A DNA stretch of 32,000 nt from Parasynechococcus marenigrum WH 8102 (GTDB taxonomy: Bacteria; Cyanobacteriota; Cyanobacteriia; PCC-6307; Cyanobiaceae). The stretch spans positions 1,500,001-1,532,000 of the forward strand of contig NC_005070.1 of the NCBI RefSeq assembly GCF_000195975.1. Reading direction: 5' to 3'. Of this stretch, positions 1-24,985 are shown piece after piece. Every line of letters starts with the position of its first letter. Position 1 is the stretch's first letter. The notes beneath the pieces are model-generated. The model was not told the origin of the DNA. It saw only the letters and a program-made list of their open reading frames with translations, and did not search any database. A program made the translations under genes and the position numbers.

Positions 1-423
1 CTCGTCAATAACAATGCAAGAGACCCACTGAATGTTGTGCAGACAAGGTTTGATCGGGTTGGATACAATTCATTTGCAATTGACTTTTATCACTCAAATA
101 AAACACCTGAATTGGTATTTATCTCACCTATCTGTAAGCCTGAAAAATCAGATTTGTCATACGGCTCAATCGCGGATATCGCGTATACATTCAATTGTAA
201 TTGCGATGTGAATTCTAAATGTTCCAAATTCATTCAAAGCACAACTCTTTTAGGAATAAATTTGATCAAGAAGGGTCGCTTGGAGGGGATAGAGTCGACA
301 AGGGAGAAAATTATGGAGGAGTTCTCTACATACAATAGAGGTAGAGAAGTTGACATTAGCGAGGTGGCTCTAAAAAATAATAATTCTCAAAGTATATTAG
401 AAGATTTGTCTCAGCTAAATTAA
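1..423 (+). CDS. hypothetical protein, probably 5'-truncated by the window edge (AT-rich cargo gene)
   Basis: The frame is open from nt 1 to TAA 421-423, with no stop upstream of the GTG at 37 used in the ORF track. The block is strongly AT-rich, unlike its neighbours. No motif recognised. Confidence 0.35.
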   Translation, partial: LVNNNARDPLNVVQTRFDRVGYNSFAIDFYHSNKTPELVFISPICKPEKSDLSYGSIADIAYTFNCNCDVNSKCSKFIQSTTLLGINLIKKGRLEGIESTREKIMEEFSTYNRGREVDISEVALKNNNSQSILEDLSQLN

Positions 424-561
424 TAAAAATATTGATAAATTCAAATTTTTGTGCATTTGATCAATCTTATACATTTTTGGGATCTCAGACAACGTCTTAA
501 GCACCTGCTGGAGACCTCATAACCCTGCTCAACCATCCGTTTCCAGACGCACCAGATACCG

Positions 562-753
562 ATGCCGAACATTCTTGATCACGTCTCACAAGCACCAGTT
601 CTTGAAATAGACGATTTGCCACGCTCGGCAACACGCAAGGAATGGTTCGCCATCACCAGGCGCATCATTCAAGACACCATCGCTGACATGAAACTCGATC
701 CCGCTGCGGAAACAGAAGTAATTGAAGCCTTCACAGGTGCAGGTCTGCTGTGA
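562..753 (+). CDS. small conserved hypothetical protein, NILD..PRS..EWF..TR..IADM family, copy 1
   Basis: 63-aa ATG ORF. Two diverged full-length paralogues lie in this window (3104..3301 and 23392..23592), plus a 3' remnant at 1172..1213. Shared pattern: MxNILD...PRSxxRxEWFxxTRxxxxxxIADM. Confidence 0.6.
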   Translation: MPNILDHVSQAPVLEIDDLPRSATRKEWFAITRRIIQDTIADMKLDPAAETEVIEAFTGAGLL

Positions 754-3532: not shown

Positions 3533-5344
3533 ATGCCACAAATGGCAACTCCACCAATTGTTGGCTTTCACAAGGGTCACGGGACTGATGGTGAGGAGCA
3601 TGTACATGAGGGAATAGAAACATTAGACACCGGATTTATTGGAATTGGACATACGCAAGACTCCCCAGAATCGGAGACTTTGGACATACTTGTCATCAAG
3701 ACTGATTCTAATGGTGAAGAAATCTGGAGTAAAAAGATTGGAGCGATTGGGGAATGGGATGTAGGCATTGCGATTGCCGAATCCAGCGATTCATTCTATG
3801 CAGTCGGAGGGAAAAGCCTAGGTGGCATTCAAAAACCAGTGATTATAAAGATGGCAAAAGGTGGTGAAATATTATGGGAAAAATTATTTGATACGCCCGG
3901 AGTTGGGATGCTGAGAGGCATTGATATCACTCAAAACGGGGAAGTAGCTGTAACCGGCTTCCATGAAGGAGACGAAGAGGGATTTGTATTTATATCGGAA
4001 GGAACTGGATTCGCAGCAGTCTTGGACAGAGATGGAGTGGTTGTCTGGCAAGAGGATTATGAACAAATACCTCAAGGAACAAAAATATTGAGCACCGATA
4101 ATAATGGCTACGCCATCTTATCAACTGTCTGGAATGAAGAAGAAAACAACGCGGCAATTTTAAAGATAGGAAATAGTGGAGAAGTGCAATGGTTTGAGAG
4201 CTATGGCGGTGGTAACAACCAAGCATTCGATTTCGAATATATTACGGAAGAAGGTTATGTCTTGGCTGGTCATACGAATTCTATCTCAGCAGTGAATTGG
4301 GATGGCTTGATGACCAAGGTCGATACAAGTGGAAATCTTGTTTGGCGAAAAACAGTAGGGCAGCCAAGAGGGTACGACTCACTGTATATCCATGATGAGT
4401 TCTACGGAATTGTTGTTGATTCTGATGGATCATATGTAATGGCTGGCGGAACAGGTGATGAATCTGCTATGTACGAAGAAGGCGGTCACCCATCAGGGCC
4501 CTCGGGAGAATGGAAGTCTTACTTGGTTAAAATCAATCCAAATGGACAGACTATATGGGAGGCAGTTTATGGAGAAAGCAATCAAGGGCACAATGCGGCA
4601 GAATTTTTGGATACCACTATTGACGGAGGCTTCATACTTTTCAATGACTCCGATACAGCTTCAATATCAACCAAAGAGCCAAACAATTTCGGATTCATGA
4701 AGCTTGATCATAATGCAAGCCATTTATCTGATGCCAACCAAGACCCATTACCTGAAACGGTAACTAACCCAACTCCTGAACCGGTTCCAACCCCTACTCC
4801 AGAACCAACGCCTGCAACTGTTCTTACACCCACGCCAGAACCACCGCCAACGCCATCTCTAGAACTACCACCATCGCCATTATCACCACCAATTGATGGT
4901 GACTTCTCATCTCTACCACCCGACTTATGGCTCTCGCAAACTCACGACGTCATCATTCAATCAGTTCGTGGTAAGGGTAAATTAAAGGGTAAGAAAGGTG
5001 CAGATGCCTTCTATTTTAATTCCTTTGAGGCATTTACTAAAAAGTCTGCTGACAAGATCATTGGATTTAAAGCATCGCAAGACACAATTGCCGTAAGTCC
5101 CGATGCGTTTCCTGCATTGGAAGGTGTCTCCGCTATCAGGTTTGCATCGACCAAGAGCAAAAAGGAATTAAAGCAATTATCCAAGGAGGATTACGATTTT
5201 GTCTATTTTGAGAAAAAAGGTCGGCTCTACTTCGATGGAAATGGCGCAGAGAAGAACTGGGGAAACAGTGATGAAGGAGGTCTTGTGGCAATCCTGAAAG
5301 GAAAACCTGAGCTAACTTCATTTGACATCAAATTGCTGGCTTGA
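3533..5344 (+). CDS. large secreted/surface repeat protein: SBBP-like beta-propeller repeats, Pro/Thr linker, shared C-terminal module
   Basis: 603 aa with no N-terminal signal peptide. Recurrent D..ivK.d.nGe..W.k..G.......gi....dG.y...G blades are followed by a PT-rich linker (4740-4930). The last ~133 aa (4946-5344) are near-identical at nucleotide level to 9361-9762 and 11847-12248. Confidence 0.85.
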   Translation: MPQMATPPIVGFHKGHGTDGEEHVHEGIETLDTGFIGIGHTQDSPESETLDILVIKTDSNGEEIWSKKIGAIGEWDVGIAIAESSDSFYAVGGKSLGGIQKPVIIKMAKGGEILWEKLFDTPGVGMLRGIDITQNGEVAVTGFHEGDEEGFVFISEGTGFAAVLDRDGVVVWQEDYEQIPQGTKILSTDNNGYAILSTVWNEEENNAAILKIGNSGEVQWFESYGGGNNQAFDFEYITEEGYVLAGHTNSISAVNWDGLMTKVDTSGNLVWRKTVGQPRGYDSLYIHDEFYGIVVDSDGSYVMAGGTGDESAMYEEGGHPSGPSGEWKSYLVKINPNGQTIWEAVYGESNQGHNAAEFLDTTIDGGFILFNDSDTASISTKEPNNFGFMKLDHNASHLSDANQDPLPETVTNPTPEPVPTPTPEPTPATVLTPTPEPPPTPSLELPPSPLSPPIDGDFSSLPPDLWLSQTHDVIIQSVRGKGKLKGKKGADAFYFNSFEAFTKKSADKIIGFKASQDTIAVSPDAFPALEGVSAIRFASTKSKKELKQLSKEDYDFVYFEKKGRLYFDGNGAEKNWGNSDEGGLVAILKGKPELTSFDIKLLA

Positions 5345-6144: not shown

Positions 6145-6237
6145 TCAACAGACAAAGGCTTCAAGCCACACAAAAGTCACCACTGATGCTTTTCCAATCG
6201 CCATCGACAACCACTGGTCACGAAGTATGCGCGTCAT
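6145..6237 (-). CDS. 30-aa hydrophobic peptide, paralogue of 22897..22989
   Basis: [30 protein letters not shown]. Same length and frame as the inverted duplicate at 22897..22989. Differences between the two include 4 synonymous codons. Confidence 0.4.
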
Positions 6238-6238
6238 C

Positions 6239-6280
6239 TCAGCAGTGCAGCTGACCCAATAAATCGCTACAGAGCCTCAT
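6239..6280 (-). CDS. 13-aa mini-ORF preceding the 30-aa peptide (leader-like)
   Basis: [13 protein letters not shown]. The stop lies 1 nt upstream of the next ATG. The equivalent ORF MMFSNDLLGHLHR* sits at 22854..22895. Confidence 0.25.
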
Positions 6281-6297
6281 GGCAAGCGCATGTAGCC

Positions 6298-9200
6298 ATG
6301 CGCAGAGAAAGTGGCAAACTGACTAAAGCTAGTGGCATGGCGATGCAAGGCAAGCTCCTCGAATCGGTACTGGTCCAAGTCCCGACGCAACCTCAGCAAA
6401 AAAATCGGACTGACCTTGAGGCAGAAACCACACTCATAGACAGAGCAACCCCTAGACGAACTCACCAAGAATGGGCGAACAGATCAGCTTTTGCTGCAAT
6501 TAATGCGGACGGGTCCGTTACATCCTGGGGTTCAACATTTGAGGGAGGTGATAGCAGTAATGTAGCCGATCAGATAAGTTCTGGTGTAGTAAGAATCCAC
6601 TCCACTAGACAAGCATTTGCTGCCATCAAGGATGATGGATCTGTAGTCGCATGGGGAAGATCTACCGATGGCGGAAACAGTTCAGCCGTTGCAGATCAAC
6701 TTGCCGGCGAGCATAATAATCAGCCTTCTGTTATTGACATTTCCTCGACGTTAGGAGCATTTGCGGCAATAAGAAATGATGGATCTGTAGTCACATGGGG
6801 ATCGTCTTTCAGAGGGGGAAACAGCAACGGCGTTACCGAGCATATTTCAAGCGGAGTCACCGATATCTTCAGTACACAATCTGCTTTTGCTGCTCTAAAG
6901 CGAGATGGTTCTGTGATTACGTGGGGCGATAGCGATTACGGCGGGGACAGCTCAGCTGTTGCAAGTGACTTGACGGGGGGCGTTGTCAAAATCTTTGCCA
7001 ATGACTACGCTTTTTCTGCCTTAAAGCAAGACGGTTCCGTTGTTACCTGGGGTCTTGACGCTTATGGAGGAAGAAGCCTTGAGGTAAGCGATTCCTTAAA
7101 CAATGTAAGTCACATCTATACAACAGACAGTGCATTCGCCGCACTCAAGGAAGATGGATCAGTCGTTTGCTGGGGACTAGACCTTTATGGTGGCAATCCG
7201 AGCGAAAGTATTGTTCAATTATTATCATCAGGTGTTTCATCCATATCCTCTACTCGTTATGCATTCGCCGCTCTTAAAGACGATGGATCAGTCATAACCT
7301 GGGACGACGTATCAGGCGGAGATAGCTCAGGTGTCTCAGAACAACTTCAATCAGGTGTGACAAGCTTATTTGCCACCGAACAAGCATTTGCTGCTTTGAA
7401 AAACGACGGCTCTGTTGTGAGCTGGGGGTCGATTTATTATGGCGGTGACAGCACTGATTTGCAATCAGAGCTCTCTAGTGGAGTCCATACAATCGTACCG
7501 AACGGCTATGCATTTTCTGCACTAAAGAATGATGGTTCTGTGCTAACTTGGGGCGGAGGAAATCAGGGCGGAGATATCAGTAGTGTTGCCGATGAATTAA
7601 GCGATGGTGTGACAGATATTTATGGCAATGAAAAAGCATTTGTTGCCATTAAAAATGATGGTAGTGTCGTGTCATGGGGTGCACCCAATCGCGGTGGAGA
7701 TTCAAGTGAAGCAAATTTCAGAGGCGGAAGTCCATCTATTGCGACACCATTAAGCGAATTAAATATCTCAGGCAAACCTATTGATGATTTTATCGATACT
7801 ATTCCTGTTCCTACCCCCACGCCTTCACCTGACACGACTACTTCACTAGGCCCAACGCCAACACCGGAATCAACTCCAATACCTTCTGCAACGCCAACAC
7901 CGGAATCAACTCCAATACCTTCTGCAACGCCAACACCGGAATCAACTCCAATACCTTCTGCAACGCCAACACCGGAATCAGCTCCAGTACCTTCTGCAAC
8001 GCCAACACCAGAATCAACTCCAGCACCTTCTGCAACTCCTGATCCGTCTATAGACCAAGAACTTATAGATGATTTCGCAAATAATTCTTCTACAAGCGGG
8101 GTTGTTGTTATAGGGGATGTCTTGTATGGCAATTTAGAATCCATATACGATGATGATTGGTTTAAAGTTTCATTAACCAAAGGAAGTGTTTATCGATTTG
8201 ATCTTGAGGGTATACAGTTGAATGATCCACGAATGACTCTGTATGGGTCTAATTTAAAGGAATTAACTTATGACGACGATGGAGGGTCTGGATATGACTC
8301 ACTCATTGAATTCACAGCAACGTCGAGTGATAACTATTTTATTAGTGCAAAAAGTTGGGGGGAAACTGGCACTTATACATTAAAGGCTACAGATATCACA
8401 CCAGCACCTTCTGCAACGCCAGCACCGGAACCAACTCCAGTACCTTCTGCAACGCCAACACCAGAATCTACTCCAGCACCTTCTGCAACTCCGGATCCGT
8501 CTATAGACCAAGAACTTATAGATGATTTCGCAAATAATTCTTCTACAAGCGGGGTTGTTGTTATAGGGGGTGTCGTGAATGGCAACTTAGAATCCATATA
8601 CGATGATGATTGGTTTAAAGTTTCGTTAACCAAAGGAAGTGTTTATCGATTTGATCTTGAGGGAATACAGTTGAATGATCCGCGAATGAGTCTGCATGGG
8701 TCTAATTTACAGGAATTAACTTATGACGACGATGGAGGGTCTGGATATGATTCACTCATTGAATTTACAGCAACGTCGAGTGATAACTATTTTATTAGTG
8801 CAAAAAGTTGGGGGGAAACTGGCACCTATGCATTAAAAGCTACAGATATAACACCAGCACCTTCTGCAACCCCAACACCGGAACCAACTCCATTACCTTC
8901 TGCAACTCCTGATCCATCTATAGACAAAGAACTTATAGATGATTTCGCAAATAATTCTTCTACAAGCGGGGTTGTTGTTATAGGGGGTGTCGTGAATGGC
9001 AACTTAGAATCCATATACGATGATGATTGGTTTAAAGTTTCATTAACCAAAGGAAGTGTTTATCGATTTGATCTTGAGGGAATACAGTTGAATGATCCGC
9101 GAATGAGTCTGCATGGGTCTAATTTACAGGAATTAACTTATGACGACGATGGAGGGTCTGGATATGATTCCCTCATTGAATTTACAGCAACGTCGAGTGA

Positions 9201-9762
9201 TGACTATTTTATTAGTGCAAAAAGTTGGGGGGAAACTGGCACCTATGCATTAAAAGCTACAGATATAACACCAGCACCTTCTGCAACCCCAACACCGGAA
9301 CCAACTCCATTACCTTCTGCAACGCCAACACCAGAATCAACTCCTGAGCCTGAGCCTTACGACGTCATCATTCAATCAGTTCGTGGTAAGGGTAAATTAA
9401 AGGGGACGAAAGTTGCAGATGCCTTCACTTTCGATAGCTTTGAACCATTCACAAAGAAAGCTGCTGACAAGATCATTGGATTTGAAGCATCGCAAGGCGA
9501 CACAATTGCCGTAAGTCCCGATGCGTTCCCTGCATTGGTAGGTGTCTCCGCTATCAGGTTTGCATCGACTAGGAGTAAGAAGGAATTCAAGCAAATGTCC
9601 AAGGAAGATTACGATTTTGTCTATTTTGAGAAAAAAGGTCGGCTCTACTTCGATGGCAATGGTTCTGCGAAGAACTGGGGGAACAGTGGTGAAGGAGGTC
9701 TCGTGGCAATCCTGAAAGGAAAGCCTGATCTAACTGCTGAGGACTTAACACTGCTTGCTTGA
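6298..9762 (+). CDS. giant secreted/surface protein: 10 RCC1-like repeats, PT/PS linker, 3 tandem PPC (pre-peptidase C-terminal-like) domains, shared C-terminal module
   Basis: 1154-aa ORF. The start is uncertain (ATG at 6298, 6337 or 6343). Ten AFAALKxDGSVxxWG....GGDSS units are followed by ([12 protein letters not shown])x5. Three domains with [14 protein letters not shown]...DP...LY......[10 protein letters not shown]...F.A....YFI....WGETGTY.LKA follow. The C-terminal module is 9361-9762. Confidence 0.85.
7855..8037 (+). repeat. 36-nt tandem repeat x5 encoding [12 protein letters not shown]
   Basis: acgccaacaccggaatcaactccaataccttctgca is repeated head to tail. The first three units are identical and the last two diverge slightly. 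Confidence 0.85.
8041..9330 (+). repeat. three tandem ~417-453 nt units (PPC-like domain plus PT linker)
   Basis: Units start at 8041, 8494 and 8911 (gatccgtctatagacc...). Units 2 and 3 are almost identical by eye. Confidence 0.85.
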
Positions 9763-9981: not shown

Positions 9982-10181
9982 TTTACAGCTAGGACTCTTG
10001 GTTAAACTATTGCGATACTGATGTTTTTCGTGGATCAACGAATGCAATGATTGACAACTGATCTCCGATTCCTGATAGAGATATCTATTTTTTCCAAAGT
10101 TAAATGCATAATAAGTTTTTCGGAGAGGCAATAGTTTTTTGCGATGAATTGTTCTACAATTATTTAAGAAGGAGAGTCACT

Positions 10182-12248
10182 ATGGCCAAAGCCCTCATAG
10201 CTGCATCGCCAGACCGCACCAGTCGTGAATGGCGTAATGCAGCTGCTTTTGCTGCACTTACTGAAACAGGGGAAATCCGTGCATGGGGAATCCCAACTTC
10301 AGGTGGCCTTTTGTCGATTGATGCAGCAGCGCTTAGTGGAGTACGCCAGATCTATTCGACTGAATCAGCATTCGCAGCATTGACTGATCAAGGGCAAGTA
10401 GTTGCGTGGGGTGGCAATGGAGGAGATGCCAGCGCAGTTCAGGATCAGTTGGAAAGTGGTATTCGATCAATTGCATCCACTACAGAGGCTTTTGCTGCTC
10501 TCGATATTAATGGCAAGGTCACAACATGGGGTACTGCGAAATTCGGTGGAGATACAAGCGACATAGCAGATGTACTCAATGAAGGTGTCGTTGATATATT
10601 TTCTACTGATCATGCATTTGCTGCACTTAAAGAAGATGGCACTGTGGTGGCCTGGGGTGACGAGTTTTCTGGTGGATTTAGGGGGAAATCTGGAATAGGA
10701 GTTGCACAAAATGTTCGAGAGATACGTTCTACATCTGGAGCTTTTGCGGCATTATTAAATGACGATACAGTGCAGACATGGGGCTATTGGAATCATGGCG
10801 GCCTTCCCGAGGGGGTAAGTGCTCTTGCATTGGCATCCGGACAAGTAAAAGACATTTTCAGTAATGAGTTCACATTTGCTGCACTTTTGAAAGATGGCAC
10901 GGTAATTGCTTGGGGGAGTCCATCATCTGGAGGTGATACAAGTTCGGTTGACGAGCAATTGATGGATGTGCAGACAATTGTTGGGAATCGAAATGCATTT
11001 GCAGCAATTACGGGTAGTGGAAAAGTGGTTAGTTGGGGCATCTCGGGGGACAATTACGTAGATCAGGGTGATGCCTTGGGGGCGGGTGTGATTAACGTCG
11101 TTGCATCTGATCAGGCTTTTGCTGCGCTCAAAAGCGATGGCTCTGTCGTGACATGGGGTTCCAGTCAATACGGTGGAGACAGTTCTGCTGTTGCTAGTGA
11201 TTTGATCAGTGATGTTGTTGAACTGACCGCTTCTGAGTCCGCGTTCGCTGCGCGAAAGAGTAATGGGAAGGTTGTAACTTGGGGTGACAATGAGGCCGGT
11301 GGGGATAGCTCCTCTGTTCAGCCACAGCTACTGACTGGCGTCGAAAAGGTCTACGCCAACCAGCTTGCATTCGCGGCCTTGAAATCGGATGGATCAGTTG
11401 TGACATGGGGAGATCAGGAATATGGCGGTAACTCACGATTTGCGACTGGTGGTGATCTAGACGATATTGTGAATATTGCTGATGTTTTTACAGATACTTT
11501 CATTGGTGATAATTTCATCGATACCGTTCCGGTTCCAACACCAACACCGGTTCCAACACCAACACCGGTTCCAACACCAACACCGGATCCAACACCAACG
11601 CCGGATCCAACACCAACACCGGATCCAACACCAACACCGGATCCAACACCAACACCGGATCCAACACCAACACCGGATCCAACACCAACACCGGATCCAA
11701 CACCAACACCGGATCCAACACCAACACCGGATCCAACACCAACACCGGATCCAACACCAACACCGGATCCAACACCAACACCGGATCCAACACCAACACC
11801 GGATCCAACACCAACACCGGATCCAACACCGACGTCAGAGCCTTATGACGGCATCATTCAATCAGTTCGTGGTAAGGGCAAATTAAAGGGAACGAAAGTT
11901 GCCGATGCCTTCACTTTCGATTCCTTTGAAGCATTTACTAAAAAGTCTGCTGACAAGATCATTGGATTTAATGCATCGCAAGGCGACACAATTGCCGTTA
12001 GTCCAAATGCGTTCCCTGCATTGACAGGTGCCTCCGCTATCAGCTTTGCATCGACTAGGAACAAGAAGGAGTTCAAGCAATTGTCCAAGGAGGATTACGA
12101 CTTTGTATATTTTGAGAAAAAAGGTCGCCTCTACTTCGATGGAAATGGCGCAGAGAAGAACTGGGGGAACAGCAGTGAGGGAGGTCTTGTGGCAATCCTG
12201 AAAGGAAAGCCTGAGCTAACTGCTGAAGACGTAACACTGTTGGCTTGA
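10182..12248 (+). CDS. large secreted/surface protein: 10 RCC1-like repeats, (TPTPDP)n linker, shared C-terminal module
   Basis: The preferred start is ATG 10182, preceded by AAGGAGAG at good spacing; the track's 10104 start adds 26 odd residues. The N-terminus [26 protein letters not shown] parallels 6298..9762. The C-terminal module is 11847-12248. No signal peptide. Confidence 0.85.
11527..11836 (+). repeat. 18-nt tandem repeat x17 (3 x ccaacaccaacaccggtt, then 14 x ccaacaccaacaccggat) encoding (TPTPVP)3(TPTPDP)14
   Basis: Nearly perfect head-to-tail units counted directly. Every Asp unit contains GGATCC. Confidence 0.9.
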
Positions 12249-12270: not shown

Positions 12271-12654
12271 ATGGCAAGGACTAGCGCGAAAGAACGTTTA
12301 GCCCGTAGGGAACATGCACTGGCGTTGCTTGCTGATGGGAACAGCTTCAGAACGGTTGCGGCGCTTGTGTCGGGAAAGTACGGGGTTTCTGAAAGAACTG
12401 CTCAACGGGACTTGACTTGGGCGAGAAACAGACTGGTAGGGGAACTGAGTTCGACGGAAGTCAAAGAGCTGTTGGCATGGTTCTGCCATAGAACTCAGAC
12501 CATCGTTCAGAAAGCCGAGAAAGCAGGTGCTTACGGTGCTGCTGTTGCTGGCATGAACCTGATTTACCAAGCGGTGCTGTCACGCGAGCTGGACAGTATT
12601 CACAGCAACCGGCATCGGGGCTATGGCAACCGACACGGGAATTACAAGGGTTAA
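12271..12654 (+). CDS. HTH DNA-binding protein (copy A of a near-identical inverted pair)
   Basis: By homology with 20810..21193 the start is ATG 12271 (MARTSAKERL), not 12259. HTH-like segment: NSFRTVAALVSGKYGVSERTAQRDL. It starts 22 nt after the stop of the third large gene. Confidence 0.7.
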   Translation: MARTSAKERLARREHALALLADGNSFRTVAALVSGKYGVSERTAQRDLTWARNRLVGELSSTEVKELLAWFCHRTQTIVQKAEKAGAYGAAVAGMNLIYQAVLSRELDSIHSNRHRGYGNRHGNYKG

Positions 12655-12887
12655 GGCCGAGTTGCGCAGTTTGCTGCTCACTTCCGTGGTCGCTTTACGC
12701 ACCATGGCTCCCGAAGGTGAGATGCCAATCTGTGTGGCTTATTCCAGATAGCCCATATGGATTACAAGGATTTTTGCCTCACCTGGCTGGTTACGTTGGC
12801 GGCCATCAACACAGTTCTGAATGTGCGCGCTCAACGAAGGCGCTGAGCAGCTTTGGCGTCGTTGCCAGCTTTTACGGAATTGCCTGC

Positions 12888-15420: not shown

Positions 15421-15453
15421 CAAGAAACCTGTCTAGGACAGTGTTTTGAAGAA

Positions 15454-15499
15454 TGGAGCCAAGGAGACTCGAACTCCTGACCCCCTGCATGCCATGCAG
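15454..15499 (-). repeat. 46-nt copy of the tRNA-Ala(GGC) 3' part (distal att repeat)
   Basis: tggagccaaggagactcgaactcctgaccccctgcatgccatgcag is identical to 24848-24893. Similarity ends exactly where the 5' part of the tRNA should continue. Confidence 0.9.
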
Positions 15500-15581: not shown

Positions 15582-15648
15582 TCGGCGCACAAGACTTATG
15601 GGTTCTTGTTGCTTCTTGGAGCGTTTTGGCGCACAATTTGGCGCACAA
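15582..15648 (+). promoter_or_regulatory. three copies of the TTTGGCGCACAA motif (1 + tandem pair); candidate arm-type integrase sites or iterons
   Basis: tcggcgcacaag at 15582. Exact tandem tttggcgcacaa tttggcgcacaa at 15625-15648. A mirror triplet lies at 24709-24762 in the same orientation. Confidence 0.5.
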
Positions 15649-16928
15649 GCCCTGACCACCTGCATCTCTTGGCCAAAGTCATCTGGTCCGACAACTTGCG
15701 GCAGGTGCTCAAGCGTGAGCACGGCAAAGGTTGGTCAGTCAGAGACCACCGTGGCCGGGTACAGCTGACGCGGATTTTTGAAGACCGTTCACGCAGTGCC
15801 GTTTACCTGCCATTGACTTGGACAGCCGATAACGCCACATCGATCCTCAACACGGTTGCTGCAATTCACGACCTGATGGATTCGCGCAAAGTCAGCCTGA
15901 AAGAAGCTGCCAGGTTGAACACTCAGGCATTGGCAGAGCCAGCCAAAAGCGCCAAGACGGTGGCTGACAAAGGTTGGGATGCAGTTGCTGCCGACTTCCT
16001 CAAGAGCCGTGGTGACAGGCGCAGCAGCACTCTCAGAGACCTCAAGCTGCGGGTTGAACGTGCTGTTGCAGTCATCAACCAGAAGCCCAAACCACGCGAC
16101 GGTATGAGCGTGTTGGAGGCATACGCCGCCGCCTACTTCAAGGAAATGGCACCCGGTGGTCAGGGGCGTAAACGAAATCTGAACGACGTCGTGGCATTCC
16201 TCCAATTCGCTGTTGATCGTTGCGGTGCACCAGACCGTTTCCTGCCACCACCAAAAGACCGCATCAATGAATTGATCGGCACCAGCCCAACATCAACAAC
16301 GGAACGACTGACACCACCAATCAAGGCAGACCAGTTCACTGCATTGTTGGATGCACTGGAAGCTGACGGCCGGCATGACCTCAAGCTGGCAGTGGCGTTG
16401 GTTGGCTATCTCGGGTTGCGGCCTGCAGAGCTGGCAGTCCTGCGTGTTGGTGATGACGAAAAGGCAAGGGTCGGCAGCATCAAGCGCAACATCCAAACGA
16501 TGCAGCAGGCAGACAAGCCGCCACGGTTGGTGATGCCACTTGAGATTGACGGCAGAAACAACGAAGGTGCCCGGGCCATAGCACAGTTCGCTAGTGGACT
16601 GGTGAAGTTGCCGAAAGCACTACGAAAACAGATTGATTTAGTTGAGGAGAAAGGACGTTTTCAAGACGTTGGTGCTGAATTTGCCCAGCAACTTTCACGC
16701 TGCAAGCATTGGCAAGCCATGTTCAAAGCAGACCCGCGCATCACCCCGTACAGCTTGCGCCATGGATTTGCTTGGCGGGCAACAGTGGGCCAAAACAAGA
16801 TTCCGGTAAGAACTACTGCCGCATTGATGGGGCATACAATGCAAGTGCACCACAGGCATTATGGCGCTTGGGTTGACGAAGCAGCCATTGAAGAAGCAGT
16901 TGGCATGCACAACGCTGTCGTCGCTTGA
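15606..16928 (+). CDS. int: tyrosine recombinase/integrase paralogue 2 (catalytic residues intact)
   Basis: GLRPAELAVL (Arg I), YSLRHGFAWR (Arg II), LMGHT, HHRHYGAW (Tyr). The true start is probably downstream of the 12-mer repeats, for example GTG 15705 (VLKREHGKGW). Confidence 0.85.
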   Translation: MLLLGAFWRTIWRTSPDHLHLLAKVIWSDNLRQVLKREHGKGWSVRDHRGRVQLTRIFEDRSRSAVYLPLTWTADNATSILNTVAAIHDLMDSRKVSLKEAARLNTQALAEPAKSAKTVADKGWDAVAADFLKSRGDRRSSTLRDLKLRVERAVAVINQKPKPRDGMSVLEAYAAAYFKEMAPGGQGRKRNLNDVVAFLQFAVDRCGAPDRFLPPPKDRINELIGTSPTSTTERLTPPIKADQFTALLDALEADGRHDLKLAVALVGYLGLRPAELAVLRVGDDEKARVGSIKRNIQTMQQADKPPRLVMPLEIDGRNNEGARAIAQFASGLVKLPKALRKQIDLVEEKGRFQDVGAEFAQQLSRCKHWQAMFKADPRITPYSLRHGFAWRATVGQNKIPVRTTAALMGHTMQVHHRHYGAWVDEAAIEEAVGMHNAVVA

Positions 16929-18014: not shown

Positions 18015-18235
18015 TTAAGCGCGCCACCTTCGATGACAACGGCAAAAAAGTGCCGGTGAAACTCACTGTTCGTGAGCAGATGCGTCATGCAGCAGCAATG
18101 GCTGACGACTGCAGATCAAAGCTGCAATGGCACCTGACTCCTACTGCGCGGGAGATGTACGAAGACTCCCTGCTTCGGCACACGCAGGACTGGATCCGAC
18201 TCAAAAAACAAGCAGACCAACAAGCAGAAAAATGA
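18011..18235 (+). CDS. 74-aa hypothetical protein (translationally coupled)
   Basis: The GTG at 18011 overlaps the preceding stop. Its own stop overlaps the ATG of the primase gene (ATGA at 18232-18235). Confidence 0.45.
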   Translation: MIKRATFDDNGKKVPVKLTVREQMRHAAAMADDCRSKLQWHLTPTAREMYEDSLLRHTQDWIRLKKQADQQAEK

Positions 18236-19374
18236 CCCACAACCCAATGGGTCGCGGGCCACTCCCTGCCAAAGATGTGGTCAATTTAGGCGACCCTCTG
18301 CCTACAAAGCAGTGCGTCACAGCACTGAAACCCACTGCAGTACCTGAAGAAAATCTGCCCGACTGGGCTCAATGTGCGCCAAAGAGTGCGCCGAACAGTG
18401 TTTACAACGCAGGCACTGATGTCACTGATGTCACTGACGGTACGGATGGCACTGGCAAACGGCTCACCATTGATGCAGCTCAAGCCCATTGGCATCTGGA
18501 CCTGCTTGGCAGGGATGAACGTGACGTTCACATCAGAGCCATCCCGCACAAGGGCAAACGCGGTTTCGCCATCAATGGCAACTTCGCCATGGACCTCGAG
18601 CGATTCCAAGATCTGAACAACCAGGGCTACGGCCTGTACCTTCAGCCAAACATCGGCGGCACCTTGAAAGATGAGGTCACGCTGTGCACCTCACTGTTCT
18701 GGGAATACGACGACAGACCACGGTCTTAACAGGTTGAGCTTTGGCAATCAACCGTTGGGTTGCAACCCACGTTCCAGATCGACACGGGTGGAAAGTCGAT
18801 CCACAACTATTTGGTGCTGGATACCCCTATGGCTCCGGGGCCATGGACGCTGTTGATGGAACGTCTGCAGTTGGCAGCGCCTGGCTGCGACAAAAGCTGC
18901 AAAGGCAACAACCGCATGATGCGGATGGCTGGTGCCCACTACATCGACCGTGAAGGTAAATCCCGGGGGCGATCACAGATCATCAACGCTGACGGCCCGC
19001 GTTACTCAGCTGAAGAGCTGGATGCAGTGTTGCCACCGTTGCTGGTGCCATCGAAAACCAACCGCAAGAAGTTGCGGACTGGTTCAGCGTCAGTGCGACA
19101 GATCGCTGAAGCGCTCGATTACATCCCACGTCGCGTTGGTGGCGCTGGCACCTACGCCATGTACCGCGATGTGTTGTGGGGGTTGAAGGCTGCGCTTGCT
19201 GATGCCGGTGCAGCCGAGACCTTGGCCATTCAGCTGATGGAAGCGCACAGTCCCTCAGCTCAATGCGATTGGGATGTTGAGCAGGTAGCTCGGTCTGGTG
19301 GTGAGCAGATCGGTGCAGGAACACTTTTCCACTACGCCAAGCAATACGGATGGAGTCGTCATGCAAAACGCTGA
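18232..19374 (+). pseudogene. AEP-type primase(-polymerase) with PriCT-2-like C-terminus, interrupted by an in-frame TAA at 18727-18729
   Basis: LFWEYDD (AEP motif I-like) ends the first ORF. TGGKSIHNY (motif II-like) and RMMRMAG follow in the same frame after a single TAA. The C-terminus GTLFHYAKQYGW is PriCT-like. Confidence 0.6.
18373..18395 (-). promoter_or_regulatory. tandem pair of the GGCGCAC 12-mer inside the primase gene (inverted relative to the end copies)
   Basis: The reverse complement reads ttcggcgcactc tttggcgcaca. Confidence 0.35.
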
Positions 19375-20664
19375 ACTAAACAAAGTCGTTGATGACGCTG
19401 AAAACGACAACCCAGAACTGAAGACCAAAGACTTCATTGAACGGGCAACAACGCTCAAGGAGAACCTCGACACGGGGTTGGAACGCGTTGATCAGATCGA
19501 TGACCCAGCGTTGCGGTCTGTGGCTCTGATCCAGCTACGGGACGAACTGGGCCTTAATCGCAATGAGTTCATGCGCCTGGTGGAACTGCTGTCCAAATTC
19601 AAAGGGGAGCAGCCGCCAGAAGACTTTGATGAACTCCGCAAGTGGACATCAGAGCGGCGTGAACCGCCTGTTGTGGAAGACCTGCTTGGCTCCAGCTGCC
19701 TGACTGTTTGGGCAGCTGATGGCTCTTCAGGCAAAAGCATGGGTGGTTATGAACTCAGCGAAGCCGTAACCACTGGCGGCAAGTTCGCTGGTCAGTTTCA
19801 AGCGCAGGTTGGCGATGTGGTGTTCGTCCAAGAAGACGAGTCACCCAGTGATGCTGAGGTGAAGTGGCGACGTATGGGTTTCAACCCCGACGGCAAACGA
19901 CTGCACATGATGTGGTCGTTCACTCCAATGATGCTTCCGGAGTTAAAAGCCAAGATCCAGCCACCTAAGCAAAGCTGGTGGTGATGGATTCGCTTATCAG
20001 CATTGCTGGCGGAACCATCTCACCAAAGGATGCTGAGTTTGCGCTGCTGCTTTACCGGCTCAACAAGTTGGCGTCGGAATTGGGCGTAGCGATCCTCCTG
20101 ATTCACCACCTCACAAAGGACAGCAACCGCAAAGAGGTCAGCAAAGAAGCCATCTTCGGCAGCGCCTTCATCTACGCCGCTACAGCCGATTGCTGGGGCT
20201 ACTGGCGGTGCGATGAAGACGGCAAACCGCATTTCAAATTGCGGGTGCTGAAGGCTCGTTCCAACACCGTTGATCTGGGCACCACCTACGTCTTCAACGG
20301 CAATGAGGAAGACCACCGCTTGAGCTTCAAAGGCTTTGGTGATCGTGTGGTCAGCCTTGATGAACTGAAGACCAAACGCGACCAGGTGGCAGCCTTGTTG
20401 CATCGCGATGGCAGCCAGAAATGGTCTGGTGCTTGCGTCAGCGACTTCTTCGGTTGGAACGGCAGCCGTTACGCCGAAAACGTGTTGTCCAAACTCTACG
20501 AACAACGTTGTGGCGTTGATCGTGTGGCAATGCCCAGCACTGGTGGCAGGCGGAAATACGCCTACTTCAGCGTTTTGGGTGGAGAAGTGAAAAAGTCCGA
20601 CTTCCCCACAGCTTCTACACCCCCTAAAACCGGGTCAGAAGCCAGTTCGGAACTGGACTTCTAA
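19361..20664 (+). pseudogene. RecA-like (AAA_25/RepA-type) replicative helicase split by a frameshift near 19966-19984
   Basis: Walker A (AADGSSGKS) lies in ORF 19361..19984. Walker B-like VVMDSL and LIHHLTK lie in ORF 19978..20664, one frame away. Joining at ~19969 gives ...IQPPKAKLVVMDSL. Confidence 0.6.
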
Positions 20665-20784: not shown

Positions 20785-20807
20785 TGTGCGCCAATTAGTG
20801 CGCCAGA
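20785..20807 (-). promoter_or_regulatory. tandem pair of the GGCGCAC 12-mer between the helicase and HTH genes
   Basis: The reverse complement reads tctggcgcacta attggcgcaca. It lies 3 nt from the stop of 20810..21193. Confidence 0.35.
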
Positions 20808-20809
20808 TG

Positions 20810-21193
20810 TCAGCCCTTGTAATTCCCGTGTCGGTTGCCGTATCCCCGATGCCGATTGCTGTGAATACTGTCCAGCTCGCGTGACAGCACCGCTTGGTAA
20901 ATCAGGTTCATGCCAGCAACAGCGGCACCGTATGCACCTGCCTTCTCGGCTTTCTGAACGATGGTCTGAGTTCTATGGCAGAACCATGCCAGCAGCTCTT
21001 TGACTTCCGTCGAACTCAGTTCCCCTACCAGTCTGTTTCTCGCCCAAGTCAAGTCCCGTTGGGCAGTCCTCTCAGATACCCCGTACTTTCCCGACACAAG
21101 CGCCGCAACTGTTCTGAAGCTGTTTCCATCAGCAAGCAACGCCAACGCATGTTCCCTACGGGCTAAGCGTTCTTTAGCGGTAGTCCTTGCCAT
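20810..21193 (-). CDS. HTH DNA-binding protein (copy B, inverted relative to 12271..12654)
   Basis: 127 aa. It differs from copy A at 20 nt: 18 synonymous, 1 Ser/Thr change, and the stop codon (TAA versus TGA). Confidence 0.75.
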   Translation of the reverse strand: MARTTAKERLARREHALALLADGNSFRTVAALVSGKYGVSERTAQRDLTWARNRLVGELSSTEVKELLAWFCHRTQTIVQKAEKAGAYGAAVAGMNLIYQAVLSRELDSIHSNRHRGYGNRHGNYKG

Positions 21194-21209
21194 AGCTCAA
21201 TAAAAGTAA

Positions 21210-21797
21210 TCAACGAAGTCCTTCACAGGCTTCACCATCATTATCGCTATCTAGATAGACGTGACCCTCTTGAAGAAGTAATTGCGCTTTATCCCACGAA
21301 GAGATTTCGCTACAACGAAGCCTTGCATTGGTCCCCCTCCTATAAATCCAAGGCCTCGTAATGCCTTGCTTACCTTCTGACCAGATACCTTGTTTGAGAT
21401 CTCTCGCTTGACTTTCCAGGAGAAGAAGATTTGGACCATCACAATCTGAAAGATATCTTGTGTACACAAACACAAGCCCTTTACGCACTAGTTCTCCAGC
21501 TACATCAACTCCCCCTGGAGTAGAGACATGTGCAACTGTGCGGCCATATCGATCTTTTTTGATGGGATAGATTGTAATGGCTGAGTCTGCAGGTATCAAT
21601 CCGCGAAATGCATTCATAGCTAGTCTTCCGTATGGATATTGTCCAATTTCTGGGGCATTAACGCATGCCAGCCTTATTTGTTGCGGGATACCATTTAGCC
21701 TTACGATAAGACTGTCTCCATCAACCACCCTGATGACTTCAGAGGCGGTGAGTGGTTGCGGAGTAAAAACAAGCAGACCTAAAACTAACTTTGACAT
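21210..21797 (-). CDS. secreted thermonuclease (SNase-like) with C-terminal Excalibur Ca-binding domain
   Basis: The start is taken at MSKLVLGLLVFTPQPLTA (signal-peptide-like). SNase motifs: DGDSLIVRL...IRLACVNAPE...DRYGRTVAHV. The C-terminus C..ISSWDKAQLLLQEGHVYLDSDNDGEACE fits the Excalibur pattern. AT-rich. Confidence 0.8.
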   Translation of the reverse strand: MSKLVLGLLVFTPQPLTASEVIRVVDGDSLIVRLNGIPQQIRLACVNAPEIGQYPYGRLAMNAFRGLIPADSAITIYPIKKDRYGRTVAHVSTPGGVDVAGELVRKGLVFVYTRYLSDCDGPNLLLLESQARDLKQGIWSEGKQGITRPWIYRRGTNARLRCSEISSWDKAQLLLQEGHVYLDSDNDGEACEGLR

Positions 21798-21866
21798 CCC
21801 AATAGCAAGCGACTCCAACACATGTCCCCTACGGGCAAAGCATTCTTTCGCGGTGGTGCGTGCCAT
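21798..21866 (-). pseudogene. 5' remnant (23 codons) of an HTH-gene copy fused in frame to the nuclease ORF
   Basis: MARTTAKECFARRGHVLESLAIG is encoded by atggcacgcaccaccgcgaaagaatgctttgcccgtagggg.... This is homologous but not identical to the first ~70 nt of 20810..21193. Confidence 0.6.
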
Positions 21867-22029: not shown

Positions 22030-22743
22030 TCACCCTATTGCTAGATCTACTGCCCTTGAAAGAGTCAATCCAAATACGTCAAGCACTACGAATCCATTTA
22101 AAAGTCGTACTATTTTTGAAGTAGAAGTTTTGCATGAATCCCCAGAGTAGTCGAAGCAAGCCTCTGCTGCGAAGAAAAAATATTCAAGAGCCCCTAGCCC
22201 GTCCATTCCTGCAATTGCCGGTGACAGATTTCTTTCAGATCGTCCATGGTTCATTCGCCAATACCACCACGTAAAACAAATCAAGATTATGGGAATAAAA
22301 AGCAAAAGCTCAATAATTAAAAGCACTGGGCTTTTGATAGGAGCCACAAGAAGCAGATTCATTATAACAAGTTCAACGATCCAGCAGGCTGAAAGGAAGA
22401 TAGCCAGTAGGTCAATCGATCTTCGCGCTTTTTTGCCCGATAGTCTCAGTACTATCAGAATAAATGTATACGTAAAAAATCCAGCTCCTATTGGCTGAAC
22501 ATGATTAGTGAGTGCATCCAAAAACGAATGAGATATCTCAAGAAAATTCTTAACCGCACCTTCTTCGACAGCCTCAAGGTCTAAGTTTCTATCAAATTGC
22601 TCAGTAAAAATAAAAGTAATAAGGAGTACGTAAATTTCCCCAGGGCTTTTGATTCGATCAATAAATGGCATTGTACTACCAGCAAGTTTTAAATATTTAA
22701 GCAAAAAAGCCCGGGGCTTCCAACCCCCCGGGCTAGTACTCAT
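22030..22743 (-). CDS. multi-pass membrane protein (unknown function)
   Basis: 237-aa AT-rich ORF with about 5 hydrophobic spans. The start may be M25 (MPFIDRI). The segment EYFFFAAEACFDYSGDS loosely recalls a degenerate pore loop, which is speculative. Confidence 0.5.
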   Translation of the reverse strand: MSTSPGGWKPRAFLLKYLKLAGSTMPFIDRIKSPGEIYVLLITFIFTEQFDRNLDLEAVEEGAVKNFLEISHSFLDALTNHVQPIGAGFFTYTFILIVLRLSGKKARRSIDLLAIFLSACWIVELVIMNLLLVAPIKSPVLLIIELLLFIPIILICFTWWYWRMNHGRSERNLSPAIAGMDGLGALEYFFFAAEACFDYSGDSCKTSTSKIVRLLNGFVVLDVFGLTLSRAVDLAIG

Positions 22744-22853
22744 CGAAAGCAGGGCGCTGTCACGATTAGGCGCGCGAATAAGTCATTGTTAGGCTGAGGT
22801 ATTCCCGTGGCGATAGCTGGCTGATCCAGCTTCTTGCCTGAGCGGACCTTGCC

Positions 22854-22895
22854 ATGATGTTCAGCAACGATTTATTGGGTCATCTGCATCGCTGA
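22854..22895 (+). CDS. 13-aa mini-ORF (leader-like), paralogue of 6239..6280
   Basis: MMFSNDLLGHLHR*. The stop lies 1 nt upstream of the next ATG. Confidence 0.25.
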   Translation: MMFSNDLLGHLHR

Positions 22896-22896
22896 G

Positions 22897-22989
22897 ATGG
22901 CACGCGTTTTTCGTGACCAGTGGTTGTCAATAGCGATTGGAGGAGCATCACTAGTGACGTTGGTGTGGCTTGAGGCGTTTGTCTGGTGA
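22897..22989 (+). CDS. 30-aa hydrophobic peptide, paralogue of 6145..6237
   Basis: MARVFRDQWLSIAIGGASLVTLVWLEAFVW*. Frame and length are conserved in the inverted duplicate. Confidence 0.4.
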   Translation: MARVFRDQWLSIAIGGASLVTLVWLEAFVW

Positions 22990-23096: not shown

Positions 23097-23267
23097 ATGA
23101 CCCATCCAACTGCTGGCGACAAAGCGATTTGTAAAGCGCAACTACTCCAATTGGCGCGTGAAATTGAAATAGAAACAAACATAAGACGAATGGAAATTGC
23201 TAGAGAGCGTTTCTCTTTAAAGACTGATTCAGTTGTCGTAGAGGCAGGTCATGGCCGGGGGGTTTAA
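23097..23267 (+). CDS. 56-aa hypothetical protein
   Basis: ATG-started part of ORF 23019..23267 (MTHPTAGDKAICKAQLLQLAREIEIE...). AT-rich. Its 3' end runs into the dispersed repeat. Confidence 0.25.
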   Translation: MTHPTAGDKAICKAQLLQLAREIEIETNIRRMEIARERFSLKTDSVVVEAGHGRGV

Positions 23268-23307
23268 GGGCATAAATCGCTGAGACCGACTGCGCTGCAA
23301 TGGATTT
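23255..23307 (-). repeat. dispersed ~53-nt repeat, copy 4
   Basis: Reverse complement: aaatccattgcagcgcagtcggtctcagcgatttatgcccttaaaccccccgg. Confidence 0.7.
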
Positions 23308-23323
23308 ACCCCGGGGCCCCTTG

Positions 23324-23377
23324 CCGGGCGGCTTTAGGGGTATAAATCGCCGAGATCAACTGCAGTGCAATGGATTT
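23324..23377 (-). repeat. dispersed ~53-nt repeat, copy 5 (tandem with copy 4, ~69-nt period)
   Basis: Reverse complement: aaatccattgcactgcagttgatctcggcgatttatacccctaaagccgcccgg. It begins 15 nt after the stop of 23392..23592. Confidence 0.7.
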
Positions 23378-23391
23378 ACCCCCGGCGCCCC

Positions 23392-23592
23392 TCATGGCAA
23401 CCCCGCAGCGATGAAGTGCTCCTCGACCAAGGACAGCTCTGTGTCGTTTAGGTCCTTAGCCATATCAGCGATGACACCAGCAACGATGGTTCTGGTGATG
23501 CGGAACCATTCCTCCCGGCTACAGCTCCGAGGCCATTCCTGAATACCTTCGAGGAGAGGGGTCTGAGCGACGTGATCAAGGATGTTGGTCAT
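23392..23592 (-). CDS. small conserved hypothetical protein, NILD..IADM family, copy 3 (third gene of an operon)
   Basis: MTNILDHVAQTPLLEGIQEWPRSCSREEWFRITRTIVAGVIADM.... 4-nt ATGA overlap with the upstream gene. Confidence 0.6.
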   Translation of the reverse strand: MTNILDHVAQTPLLEGIQEWPRSCSREEWFRITRTIVAGVIADMAKDLNDTELSLVEEHFIAAGLP

Positions 23593-23942
23593 GAGGCCAT
23601 CTCCCGAGCATCAAGCTCACGCTGCAAGCGATCGCGTAGATCAGCAGCAGCGTCACGGTCATCAAGAACACCGCCAACACGTTTCTCAAGCTCTGAGTTG
23701 AGAGTGCCGATCTTGCTGTCTAAATACAGCATGTGCGCTTCGACCTGCTTCTCGTAGCGATGCAGGTGAGACGGCAACCATGTGTGCCAGGTCCAGTCGA
23801 TAAACGACTGCGGCATACCGGAGAAGGTTGGGTCGACTTCTAGAGCTGCATCACGCTCAGCGAGCAGACGATCCATGACACGTCTGGTGTCAGCTGGGCT
23901 GATGTGCAACCAACCAAGACAAGGGTGAGGGCGAGAAAGCAT
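23589..23942 (-). CDS. hypothetical protein (117 aa), middle gene of the operon
   Basis: Start and stop are overlap-coupled to both neighbours. GC-rich coding-like composition. Trp/His-rich centre (FIDWTWHTWLPSHLHRY) and an acidic/Arg coiled tail. Confidence 0.55.
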   Translation of the reverse strand: MLSRPHPCLGWLHISPADTRRVMDRLLAERDAALEVDPTFSGMPQSFIDWTWHTWLPSHLHRYEKQVEAHMLYLDSKIGTLNSELEKRVGGVLDDRDAAADLRDRLQRELDAREMAS

Positions 23943-24352
23943 CAGAAGTACCTCCCGGTCATTGGGTTGATGCCACTGATGAGCTGCTGCTCGCGGACCT
24001 TGGCAGCTCTCTCGTTACTTTCGCGGAGGCGCTCTGTGCGCATCTGCAGGGCCTGCGCTGCCATGGCTCTGGCTTCCTTCTCCTCGTCGATACGGTGCCG
24101 AATACCAGGGTCGATACCGCAGAAGTGAGCTAACTCTGCACAATCTTGTGCAATAAGCGATGTAAGTGTCAGGTTTGACCTGATTTTTGCCATGTCGACC
24201 GGTTGACCGTAACGACGTGCTGGGAGGAGATTCTTGGTGCCATCGATCTTGGCGATTCTGGCTTCAAGCTGACGAGCTTGAGTTTCGACTTGTGATGCAG
24301 ATTGGTACGACGCCTTGATCTGGTCATCGATAGAAAAGTATTCAGCTGACAT
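23942..24352 (-). CDS. hypothetical coiled-coil-like protein (136 aa), first gene of the operon
   Basis: Its TGA shares one nt with the ATG of the next gene (TGATG). No motif recognised. Confidence 0.55.
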   Translation of the reverse strand: MSAEYFSIDDQIKASYQSASQVETQARQLEARIAKIDGTKNLLPARRYGQPVDMAKIRSNLTLTSLIAQDCAELAHFCGIDPGIRHRIDEEKEARAMAAQALQMRTERLRESNERAAKVREQQLISGINPMTGRYF

Positions 24353-24813: not shown

Positions 24814-24847
24814 CAAATGCCAGTGCCTGACTGGGTTCTCTTAGAAA

Positions 24848-24920
24848 TGGAGCCAAGGAGACTCGAACTCCTGACCCCCTGCATGCCATGCAGGTGCTCT
24901 ACCAGCTGAGCTATGGCCCC
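24848..24920 (-). tRNA. tRNA-Ala(GGC): tRNA-Ala (anticodon GGC)
   Basis: Manual cloverleaf: acceptor GGGGCCA/TGGCTCC with the G3:U70 Ala identity pair, D arm GCTC/GAGC, anticodon stem CCTGC/GCAGG with loop ATGGCAT, T arm AGGAG-TTCGAGT-CTCCT. 73 nt; CCA not encoded. Confidence 0.9.
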
Positions 24921-24985
24921 ATGAACGCCGGTGATGCCCTCGGGCTCGTGCCGTCGTCGTATCCAAGCTTACACCGAGGCGGCGA

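Follow-up and report, generated by a model that had tools for sequence, protein, structure and literature searches.

A nuclease gene fused to the 5' end of a helix-turn-helix gene and a likely cargo slot in a tycheposon-like element of Parasynechococcus marenigrum WH 8102

Introduction

In the genome of Parasynechococcus marenigrum WH 8102 a nuclease gene begins with what appear to be the first codons of a small helix-turn-helix (HTH) gene, and an intact HTH gene starts immediately behind it. This arrangement raises the question of how the 5' end of one gene came to head another, and whether the start of the HTH gene is a place at which cargo is gained. An earlier note on this DNA, made from the sequence alone, proposed that the fragment derives from a different copy of the HTH gene, and that cargo is swapped in directly upstream of this gene by recombination within its 5' end or by a site-specific mechanism that uses it as a landing pad.

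Here we analyse the locus in a window of 32,000 nucleotides (bases 1,500,001-1,532,000 of the single-contig 2,434,428-bp genome), which includes FtsH, LexA-like and ornithine carbamoyltransferase genes among others; coordinates are those of the window unless marked as genome positions. Tycheposons have been reported by Hackl et al. (bioRxiv 10.1101/2020.12.28.424599), and tycheposon-like insertions in Synechococcus by Grebert et al. (PMC8995045). In the part of the Hackl report considered here, Ala-ggc is one of seven tRNA targets, and cargo is modelled as arriving in the form of flanking DNA through imprecise excision.

Results

Anatomy of the stub-nuclease fusion

The locus comprises the following features.

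22030-22743, minus strand: membrane-protein cargo gene, 237 aa, co-oriented, no family match
21866-21798, minus strand: HTH-derived stub of 23 codons, which putatively gives the nuclease ORF its start codon and an N-terminal leader
21797-21210, minus strand: SNase (thermonuclease) body, which has a signal-like hydrophobic segment and, at the C-terminus, a motif resembling Excalibur
21209-21194, minus strand: spacer of 16 nt, ending TTGAGCT ahead of the HTH ATG
21193-20810, minus strand: intact type-1 HTH gene, copy B, 127 aa
20743-20759, minus strand: terminator-like hairpin past the HTH gene and probable operon end, from a consensus scan whose match count was not above chance

The stub is in frame with the nuclease, and the two form a 218-aa ORF (21210-21866) that runs from the stub ATG at 21866 through the former nuclease ATG at 21797 (Met24) to the stop at 21212-21210. 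Both this in-frame fusion and the order of stub, nuclease, 16-nt gap and intact HTH gene on the minus strand agree exactly with the earlier note. The fusion protein begins MARTTAKECFARRGHVLESLAIG, and the HTH protein encoded at 21193-20810 begins MARTTAKERLARREHALALLADG. Ungapped, the stub is identical to the 5' end of the intact gene at 56 of 69 positions, and a BLAST search of the whole 2.43-Mb genome aligned it with the type-1 HTH 5' end at 84% over 63 nt (E 1e-13), a likeness well outside chance and somewhat above the three-quarters that had been estimated by eye. Sequence comparison found no similarity between the DNA upstream of the stub ATG and that upstream of the HTH ATG. Relative to the type-1 (T1) consensus, three stub codons are changed synonymously and seven non-synonymously, which fits relaxed constraint on a leader and not HTH function.

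The body of the ORF matches the SNase family (PF00565) with an E-value of 1.8e-14 and 54.5 bits against a Pfam cut-off of 21. The Excalibur match of the window protein (PF05901) reaches 21.9 bits against a cut-off of 22, and a precomputed match to this family is present in many nuclease homologues. The nuclease is predicted to be secreted. The cargo is AT-richer than its surroundings, as the earlier note had remarked, with a G+C content of 0.46-0.48 against about 0.55 for the backbone.

Conservation of the fusion among nuclease homologues

A search with the 218-aa ORF returned 21 environmental protein clusters of exactly 218 aa, 76-87% identical over full coverage; the open stub frame in these homologues is partly a matter of ascertainment, the query having been the 218-aa form. 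In an alignment of the close homologues (n=19) Met1 hardly varies; at the position of Met24, 4 sequences have Met and the other 15 have T, S, A, V or K. The 22 N-terminal residues vary freely with the frame open, and some N-termini are perfect type-1 HTH sequence, that of P0104 being MARTTAKERLARREHALALLA. We also compared five other contigs that carry the nuclease, four from assemblies (L080, L081, L083 and L084) and one from a metagenome (L082); codon 24 in L080, L081, L082, L083 and L084 is ACG, ACG, ATG, GTG and ACA, respectively. As Met24 has been lost in most homologues, the HTH-derived ATG is the sole start there. Distant SNases begin with a short signal peptide at the Met24 position, and the SNase paralogue in the same genome (genome 343,318-343,881) also begins at this position.

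The stub is thus an old part of the nuclease module, whose start codon it would supply, and not a piece of another HTH copy in this genome; the earlier note had derived it from a different copy. The HTH start codon and leader would have been co-opted by the cargo gene, with expression predicted to begin at the stub ATG.

A tRNA-targeted element with a defined cargo slot

The fusion lies in an element, here called B, that is bounded by a tRNA gene and a partial copy of it.

24847-24921, minus strand: tRNA-Ala(GGC), integration target
23392-24352, minus strand: left-arm genes of 136, 117 and 66 aa, which bound the cargo slot on the tRNA side
15452-15499, minus strand: partial tRNA-Ala copy and distal att of element B, a 48-nt perfect direct repeat of 24846-24893

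The 48-nt repeat spans the tRNA-Ala(GGC) gene from the anticodon stem to the 3' end, and the two repeats lie 9.4 kb apart; an Rfam scan of the window reported tRNA only. Between the repeats, read in the orientation of the HTH gene, come the 136-, 117- and 66-aa genes, the cargo (membrane protein and nuclease) and the HTH gene. Beyond these the other strand carries a primase-helicase, and two small genes and a tyrosine integrase complete the element. The integrase ORF (15606-16928) matches Phage_integrase at E 1.4e-4, which falls short of the Pfam cut-off; its identity to the integrases from the elements around HTH copies C and D is 45-49%. The primase/helicase-like stretch (18127-20664, plus strand) is split into four frames, each matching parts of single phage primase/helicase families, so the replication gene of the element is probably broken or inactive. 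The arm-type repeat TTGGCGCAC occurs 6 times in the window against 0.34 expected, with two copies just inside each end.

The gene order of B recurs at HTH copies C and D, where the left-arm genes lie 3-4 kb upstream of the HTH gene; D adjoins tRNA-Val(UAC). An origin of the layout by inversion between two inverted HTH copies can be dismissed, since the tRNA repeats are direct and B has the gene order of C and D. Between the 117-aa gene and the HTH ATG the DNA of B, C and D is unrelated, and the modules on either side are conserved, which marks out a defined cargo slot. Cargo genes read in the direction of the HTH gene, the single exception being a methyltransferase in D. B, C and D are tycheposon-like elements.

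Several further observations concern the DNA around the slot. One arm-type TTGGCGCAC lies directly past the HTH stop (20786-20794, minus strand), and CTGCATTGGTTGCAG, which resembles the tRNA anticodon arm, follows at 20724-20710 (minus strand; compare CTGCATGGCATGCAG); the two may amount to an internal pseudo-att site that marks the opposite edge of the HTH module. At 23252-23390 (plus strand) stand two tandem 69-nt repeats with hairpin potential, which contain ATAAATCGCTGA, akin to the core of region P (described below), and relatives of these repeats lie at 1070-1129. Large surface-protein cargo genes are found at 3533-5344, 6298-9762 and 10104-12248 and at genome 356,382-357,641 and 1,497,425-1,498,621. 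All of them have one C-terminal domain of about 140 aa in common, a layout that we take to recall type I secretion C-terminal signals, and several of them stop 22-36 nt ahead of an HTH gene.

The HTH gene is an exchangeable module

The genome carries four type-1 HTH copies, about 95% identical in nucleotides and 98-99% in amino acids, of which A and B lie in the window, C at genome 1,177,112 and D at genome 2,317,757. It also has three copies of type 2 (MAITTRAQRQQRR), two of type 3 (MTRKRVTASEKK, one of them at 1520-1906) and a fourth type; types 2, 3 and 4 are 26-33% identical to type 1. The starts of these genes are conserved (ATGGCA.., encoding MARTT or MAITT).

At the nucleotide level the four type-1 copies show homology only within the ORF, where it starts at position 1 and ends at about 371-415. 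Within it dS is 0.17-0.23 and dN 0.003-0.025, which indicates strong purifying selection on the HTH gene. We considered gene conversion as the sole cause of the ORF-confined 95% identity and rejected it, because a dS of about 0.2 with very low dN is that of separate alleles under purifying selection. The HTH gene of B differs from those of C and D by a dS of 0.20, and the 117-aa gene (p117) of B from those of C and D by 0.68-0.81; it follows that the backbone of B is older than its HTH gene, and B is the one element in which such a mismatch of age between backbone and HTH gene is clear.

Copy A records a replacement of the HTH body.

12271-12654, plus strand: type-1 HTH copy A, with the third surface-protein gene ending 22 nt upstream
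12663-12851, plus strand: type-2 HTH 3' end (last 57 nt) and downstream DNA, behind the type-1 stop

The surface protein (714 aa) ends at 12248 and the ATG of copy A follows at 12271 in the same orientation, as the earlier note had described. Copy A has 434 nt of upstream DNA, together with ATGGCAA, in common with the type-2 gene at genome 357,664. The likeness resumes past the gene, where positions +393..581 of A match +324..508 of the type-2 (T2) gene at 85%. The type-2 3' end behind the stop of copy A implies that a type-1 gene replaced nt 8-323 of a type-2 gene. In the same way, the window and contig L082 have +389..+659 downstream of the HTH gene in common and differ in HTH type. Such differing HTH types inside constant flanks show that the HTH body is an exchangeable module. 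The proposal that the HTH start serves as a landing pad for cargo thus holds insofar as this start is used recurrently; the HTH body itself is swapped, however, so that the start is better described as a module boundary than as a landing pad alone.

In other genomes of the genus (L013, L017, L018 and L025) a second conserved upstream sequence (GAGACACATCGATTTTTTAGGGGCTGATCC) stands ahead of two HTH types, one flank with different HTH bodies.

Region P, further stubs and scattered breakpoints

A conserved region of about 170 nt, here called P, has the core TGACCCAATAAATCG...ATGGCAAGG; after TGACCCAATAAATCG come 12-14 nt (consensus CCGCTGATCACC) and then ATGGCAA. P lies directly ahead of intact HTH genes at copy C, at genome 377,607 and in other genomes, and within the window it stands ahead of cargo.

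22847-22926, minus strand: copy of P, which matches the DNA immediately ahead of HTH copy C at 85% identity
22766-22855, minus strand: 29-codon mini-ORF (MARSAQARSW...) after P, ahead of the membrane-protein cargo
6208-6286, plus strand: copy of P, then of an HTH start only ATGGCAAG (8-nt stub, genome 1506279), then the second surface-protein gene (6298)

At genome 1,497,148, P is followed by a 36-codon mini-ORF, a 398-aa surface protein and a type-2 HTH gene. This 36-codon version of the mini-ORF after P (MARAAKASSCISK..HGLL, genome 1,497,308) has its length conserved in other genomes, at L037/L055, L061, L063, L070 and L075, and could be a genuine small gene and not a stub. An exact-pattern scan for P in the genome contigs gave one real match, near relatives probably being absent there, and a scan of metagenomes yielded 23 loci, of which many are orthologues of loci in this genome and do not count as independent. 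P was also considered as a sigma-70 promoter and rejected, convincing hexamers and spacing being absent and the scan not above chance.

At least eight further 5' HTH stubs occur in this and other genomes. At copy D, P is followed by 13 nt of HTH start; in G183 P precedes 17-19 type-2 codons, 0.8 kb of other DNA and then a different HTH type; in G122 it precedes stubs of 32 and 49 codons; and in two metagenome contigs it precedes stubs of 34 (L067) and 43 codons (L075). Remnants of the HTH 3' end were located at genome positions 380,672 and 342,420 and behind copy A. An apparent hybrid HTH gene with a breakpoint at codon 25 in G317 (L044) proved to be a frameshifted type-1 pseudogene.

The DNA upstream of HTH genes is thus variable (nuclease, surface proteins, P, membrane-protein cassette) and 5' stubs recur, so that the HTH start is the recurrent junction that the earlier note took it to be; the condition that the note had set for its refutation, invariant upstream genes and a lack of more 5' remnants, does not apply. 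Left breakpoints lie at +8, +13, about +50, +67, about +100, +129 and +147, right breakpoints at -1 to -36, and 3' stubs are found too. Of the two routes suggested in the earlier note, recombination within the HTH 5' end and a site-specific mechanism, the second, if precise, is made unlikely by the scatter of the breakpoints, together with the lack of an attC-like element and of a nearby recombinase or arm-type site.

The nuclease unit in other contexts

Relative to the HTH ATG, homology to the window extends over -672..+3 in L080, -672..+27 in L082, -615..+14 in L084 and -597..+26 in L081, so that in four of the five contigs it starts at or just inside the stub and stops at the next HTH ATG. 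The fifth, L083, is a B-like element in which the alignment with the window continues through helicase and primase. The spacer ending TTGAGCT is kept in every nuclease context (window, D, L080-L084). Upstream of the unit there are five different contexts, and the HTH gene downstream is of T1, T6 or T2.

Window (B): membrane-protein cassette upstream of the stub; type-1 HTH downstream
Copy D: P and a 13-nt stub upstream, then an inserted antisense methyltransferase; type-1 HTH downstream
L080: 413-aa surface protein upstream; "type 6" HTH (MARTTRKERMERRQ) downstream
L081: 209-aa ORF upstream; "type 6" HTH downstream
L082: region P directly upstream; "type 6" HTH downstream
L083: P and a type-2 stub upstream; type-1 HTH downstream
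L084: P and a type-2 stub upstream; type-2 HTH downstream

The elements that bear the unit lie at tRNA-Ala (window, L080, L084) and at tRNA-Val (D, L082), with integrases that are 37-49% identical. B and D, which have different tRNAs and different replication genes, share only -282..+371 at 95.7% (nuclease 3' end, spacer and HTH gene). D resembles the layout of L082, with the methyltransferase in place of stub nt 14-67 and the 5' part of the nuclease. This AT-rich antisense gene of element D (genome 2,316,750-2,317,470), methyltransferase-like by eye, now occupies the place of most of the stub and of the nuclease gene's 5' third.

Discussion

We lean towards reading the region as the promoter-proximal cargo slot of a tycheposon-like element in tRNA-Ala(GGC), with the HTH start as a module boundary and the nuclease unit as mobile. 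The element has a fixed order, from the 136-, 117- and 66-aa genes through variable cargo to the HTH gene, with the primase-helicase and integrase running in the opposite direction, and the conserved HTH start, often with P ahead of it, would make the module boundary. Promoterless, co-oriented cargo would fill the space that runs from P or an HTH-type start to the intact HTH gene, every cargo unit opening with a piece of HTH 5' end 8-147 nt long. The nuclease unit would have a single origin, in which an SNase ORF with a signal peptide was fused to a type-1 HTH gene at codon 22/23; thereafter the nuclease would have used the HTH ATG and basic N-terminus as its start. The unit of stub, nuclease and 16-nt spacer would then have moved among elements with different tRNAs and integrases. 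The lack of a clear sigma-70 consensus in P counts against this reading.

This movement may have proceeded by ordinary recombination, with the duplicated HTH-derived flanks and P as short homology and loop-in/loop-out or a double crossover as the route; neither a recombination intermediate nor an empty/filled pair within one population was seen. Where P is absent, the homology at the junctions amounts to 6-25 nt, which is below the usual need of RecA, so that illegitimate events must be invoked. Such joins would contribute to the process and be filtered by selection for an intact HTH gene and expressed cargo.

An alternative that we judge unlikely, though it accounts for part of the data, is that the stubs are deletion scars: serial integration at one tRNA would be followed by internal deletions that fuse cargos and leave an HTH 5' stub, with loss of the HTH, replication, integrase, att and left-arm genes, along the lines of the island-growth model of Hackl et al. 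as set out in the part of that report considered here. Two integrases do stand head to head around a partial tRNA copy, and at genome 1497-1512 kb type-2, type-3 and type-1 HTH genes form a chain with no integrases between them, which contains p136, p117 and HTH 3'-end fragments; tandem integration and degenerate remnants are, moreover, published for tycheposons in the same part of that report (10.1101/2020.12.28.424599). However, with a backbone of about 5 kb, random end points would rarely land in its first 150 nt as often as observed, the boundaries of the nuclease unit are alike in five contexts, and deletion within one array cannot shift the unit between tRNA-Ala and tRNA-Val. With the unit present at two different tRNAs, tandem integration and deletion cannot be the whole story.

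A second alternative starts from the HTH protein itself, which might be a packaging protein of the small-terminase kind that has its pac site in the 5' region of its own gene; if that site were cut imprecisely, recombinogenic ends would result, and joins would be concentrated in roughly the first 150 nt. Breakpoints that are local yet scattered suit imprecise pac cutting, as it is known from P22 and SPP1. An AlphaFold monomer model of the HTH protein (pLDDT 86.7) has five helices, arranged as an N-terminal HTH and a long helical hairpin, and its best PDB match in Foldseek is the small terminase of phage G20C; the HTH profile, in turn, aligns nearly end to end with the Pam5 small terminase. Neither match is significant (E 0.26 and TM 0.29 for G20C, E 0.29 for Pam5), the viral fold library yielded mostly unnamed proteins, Pfam gave only weak generic HTH matches, and a PHROGs search returned nothing useful. 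PICI-like tycheposons with terS are published, in the part of the tycheposon literature considered here, but the present element has no large terminase or capsid gene and no known pac site. The relationship to small terminases is therefore an unproven lead and not a result, and we regard a pac-based origin of the joins as improbable.

Site-specific, integron-like capture of cassettes at the HTH start seems to us very improbable. In one version a tyrosine integrase would use ATGGCA(A/C) as a secondary core, this sequence resembling the tRNA-Ala anticodon loop ATGGCAT, the inferred site of the real crossover. ATGGCA does open every unit, the att identity block begins at the anticodon stem CTGC-ATGGCAT-GCAG, cargo is promoter-proximal and co-oriented as in integrons, and the look-alike core CTGCATTGGTTGCAG with arm-type repeats lies directly past the HTH gene. 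ATGGCA, however, codes for the conserved Met-Ala in any case and is not surrounded by an inverted repeat; the cassette ends, with spacers of 16-36 nt, have no attC-like element; no arm-type site lies near 21193-21866; tRNA-derived sequence is absent from all junctions; and the breakpoints are scattered, from +8 to +147 on the left and from -1 to -36 on the right. The likeness between the att core and the junctions is no longer than ATGGCA and 2-3 further bases. We consider it less probable still that the HTH start ATGGCA(A/C)G is a true secondary attachment core that mimics the tRNA-Ala anticodon loop and at which the integrase captures and releases cassettes; a tyrosine integrase that targets tRNA genes would then underlie a cassette system of the integron type.

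The reading of a cargo slot bounded by the HTH start bears most directly on tycheposons (10.1101/2020.12.28.424599), with which, as far as the part of that report considered here describes them, element B has in common a tyrosine integrase, integration at tRNA-Ala(GGC), a flanking partial tRNA, a primase-helicase module, niche-type cargo, tandem integration and degenerate remnants. As in the tycheposon-like insertions of Synechococcus, its integrase lies at the distal end. A fixed internal slot ahead of a small HTH gene, HTH 5' stubs at the edges of cargo and an HTH start borrowed by cargo are, in contrast, not described in that part of the report. How cargo is gained and reshuffled in picocyanobacterial islands is an open part of the tycheposon story, and the present locus points to a second, internal route, in which a slot ahead of the HTH gene takes up cargo units bounded by HTH pieces and these units move between elements at different tRNAs.

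Other systems offer partial parallels. The integron platform, with Pc, attI and a cassette array, likewise places co-oriented, promoterless cargo between a conserved upstream region and a fixed gene, but the slot described here has no adjoining IntI-type integrase, no attC and no fixed crossover point; no palindromic element was found in the 16-36-nt spacers and no recombinase next to the slot. In the hotspots of SXT/R391 ICEs and P4-like satellites, unrelated cargo occupies one position between conserved core genes. The sharp cargo boundaries at gene ends are alike in the two cases, whereas here the cargo units bear a duplicated 5' piece of the neighbouring core gene and the core gene itself is of exchangeable types.

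Mosaic boundaries in tailed phages have been explained by the linker model of Susskind and Botstein and by the illegitimate-recombination model of Hendrix. There, as in the elements studied here, joints lie at gene boundaries where short conserved sequences occur, and divergent alleles of DNA-binding genes sit inside conserved flanks. The present case differs in that it concerns a non-phage island, and in that the stubs record the joints directly, as natural breakpoint records that can be counted in single-cell genomes to gauge the process. It differs, too, in that one stub appears to have been co-opted as coding sequence, which would make the nuclease a clean case of a cargo gene adopting the start codon and leader of a mobile-element gene.
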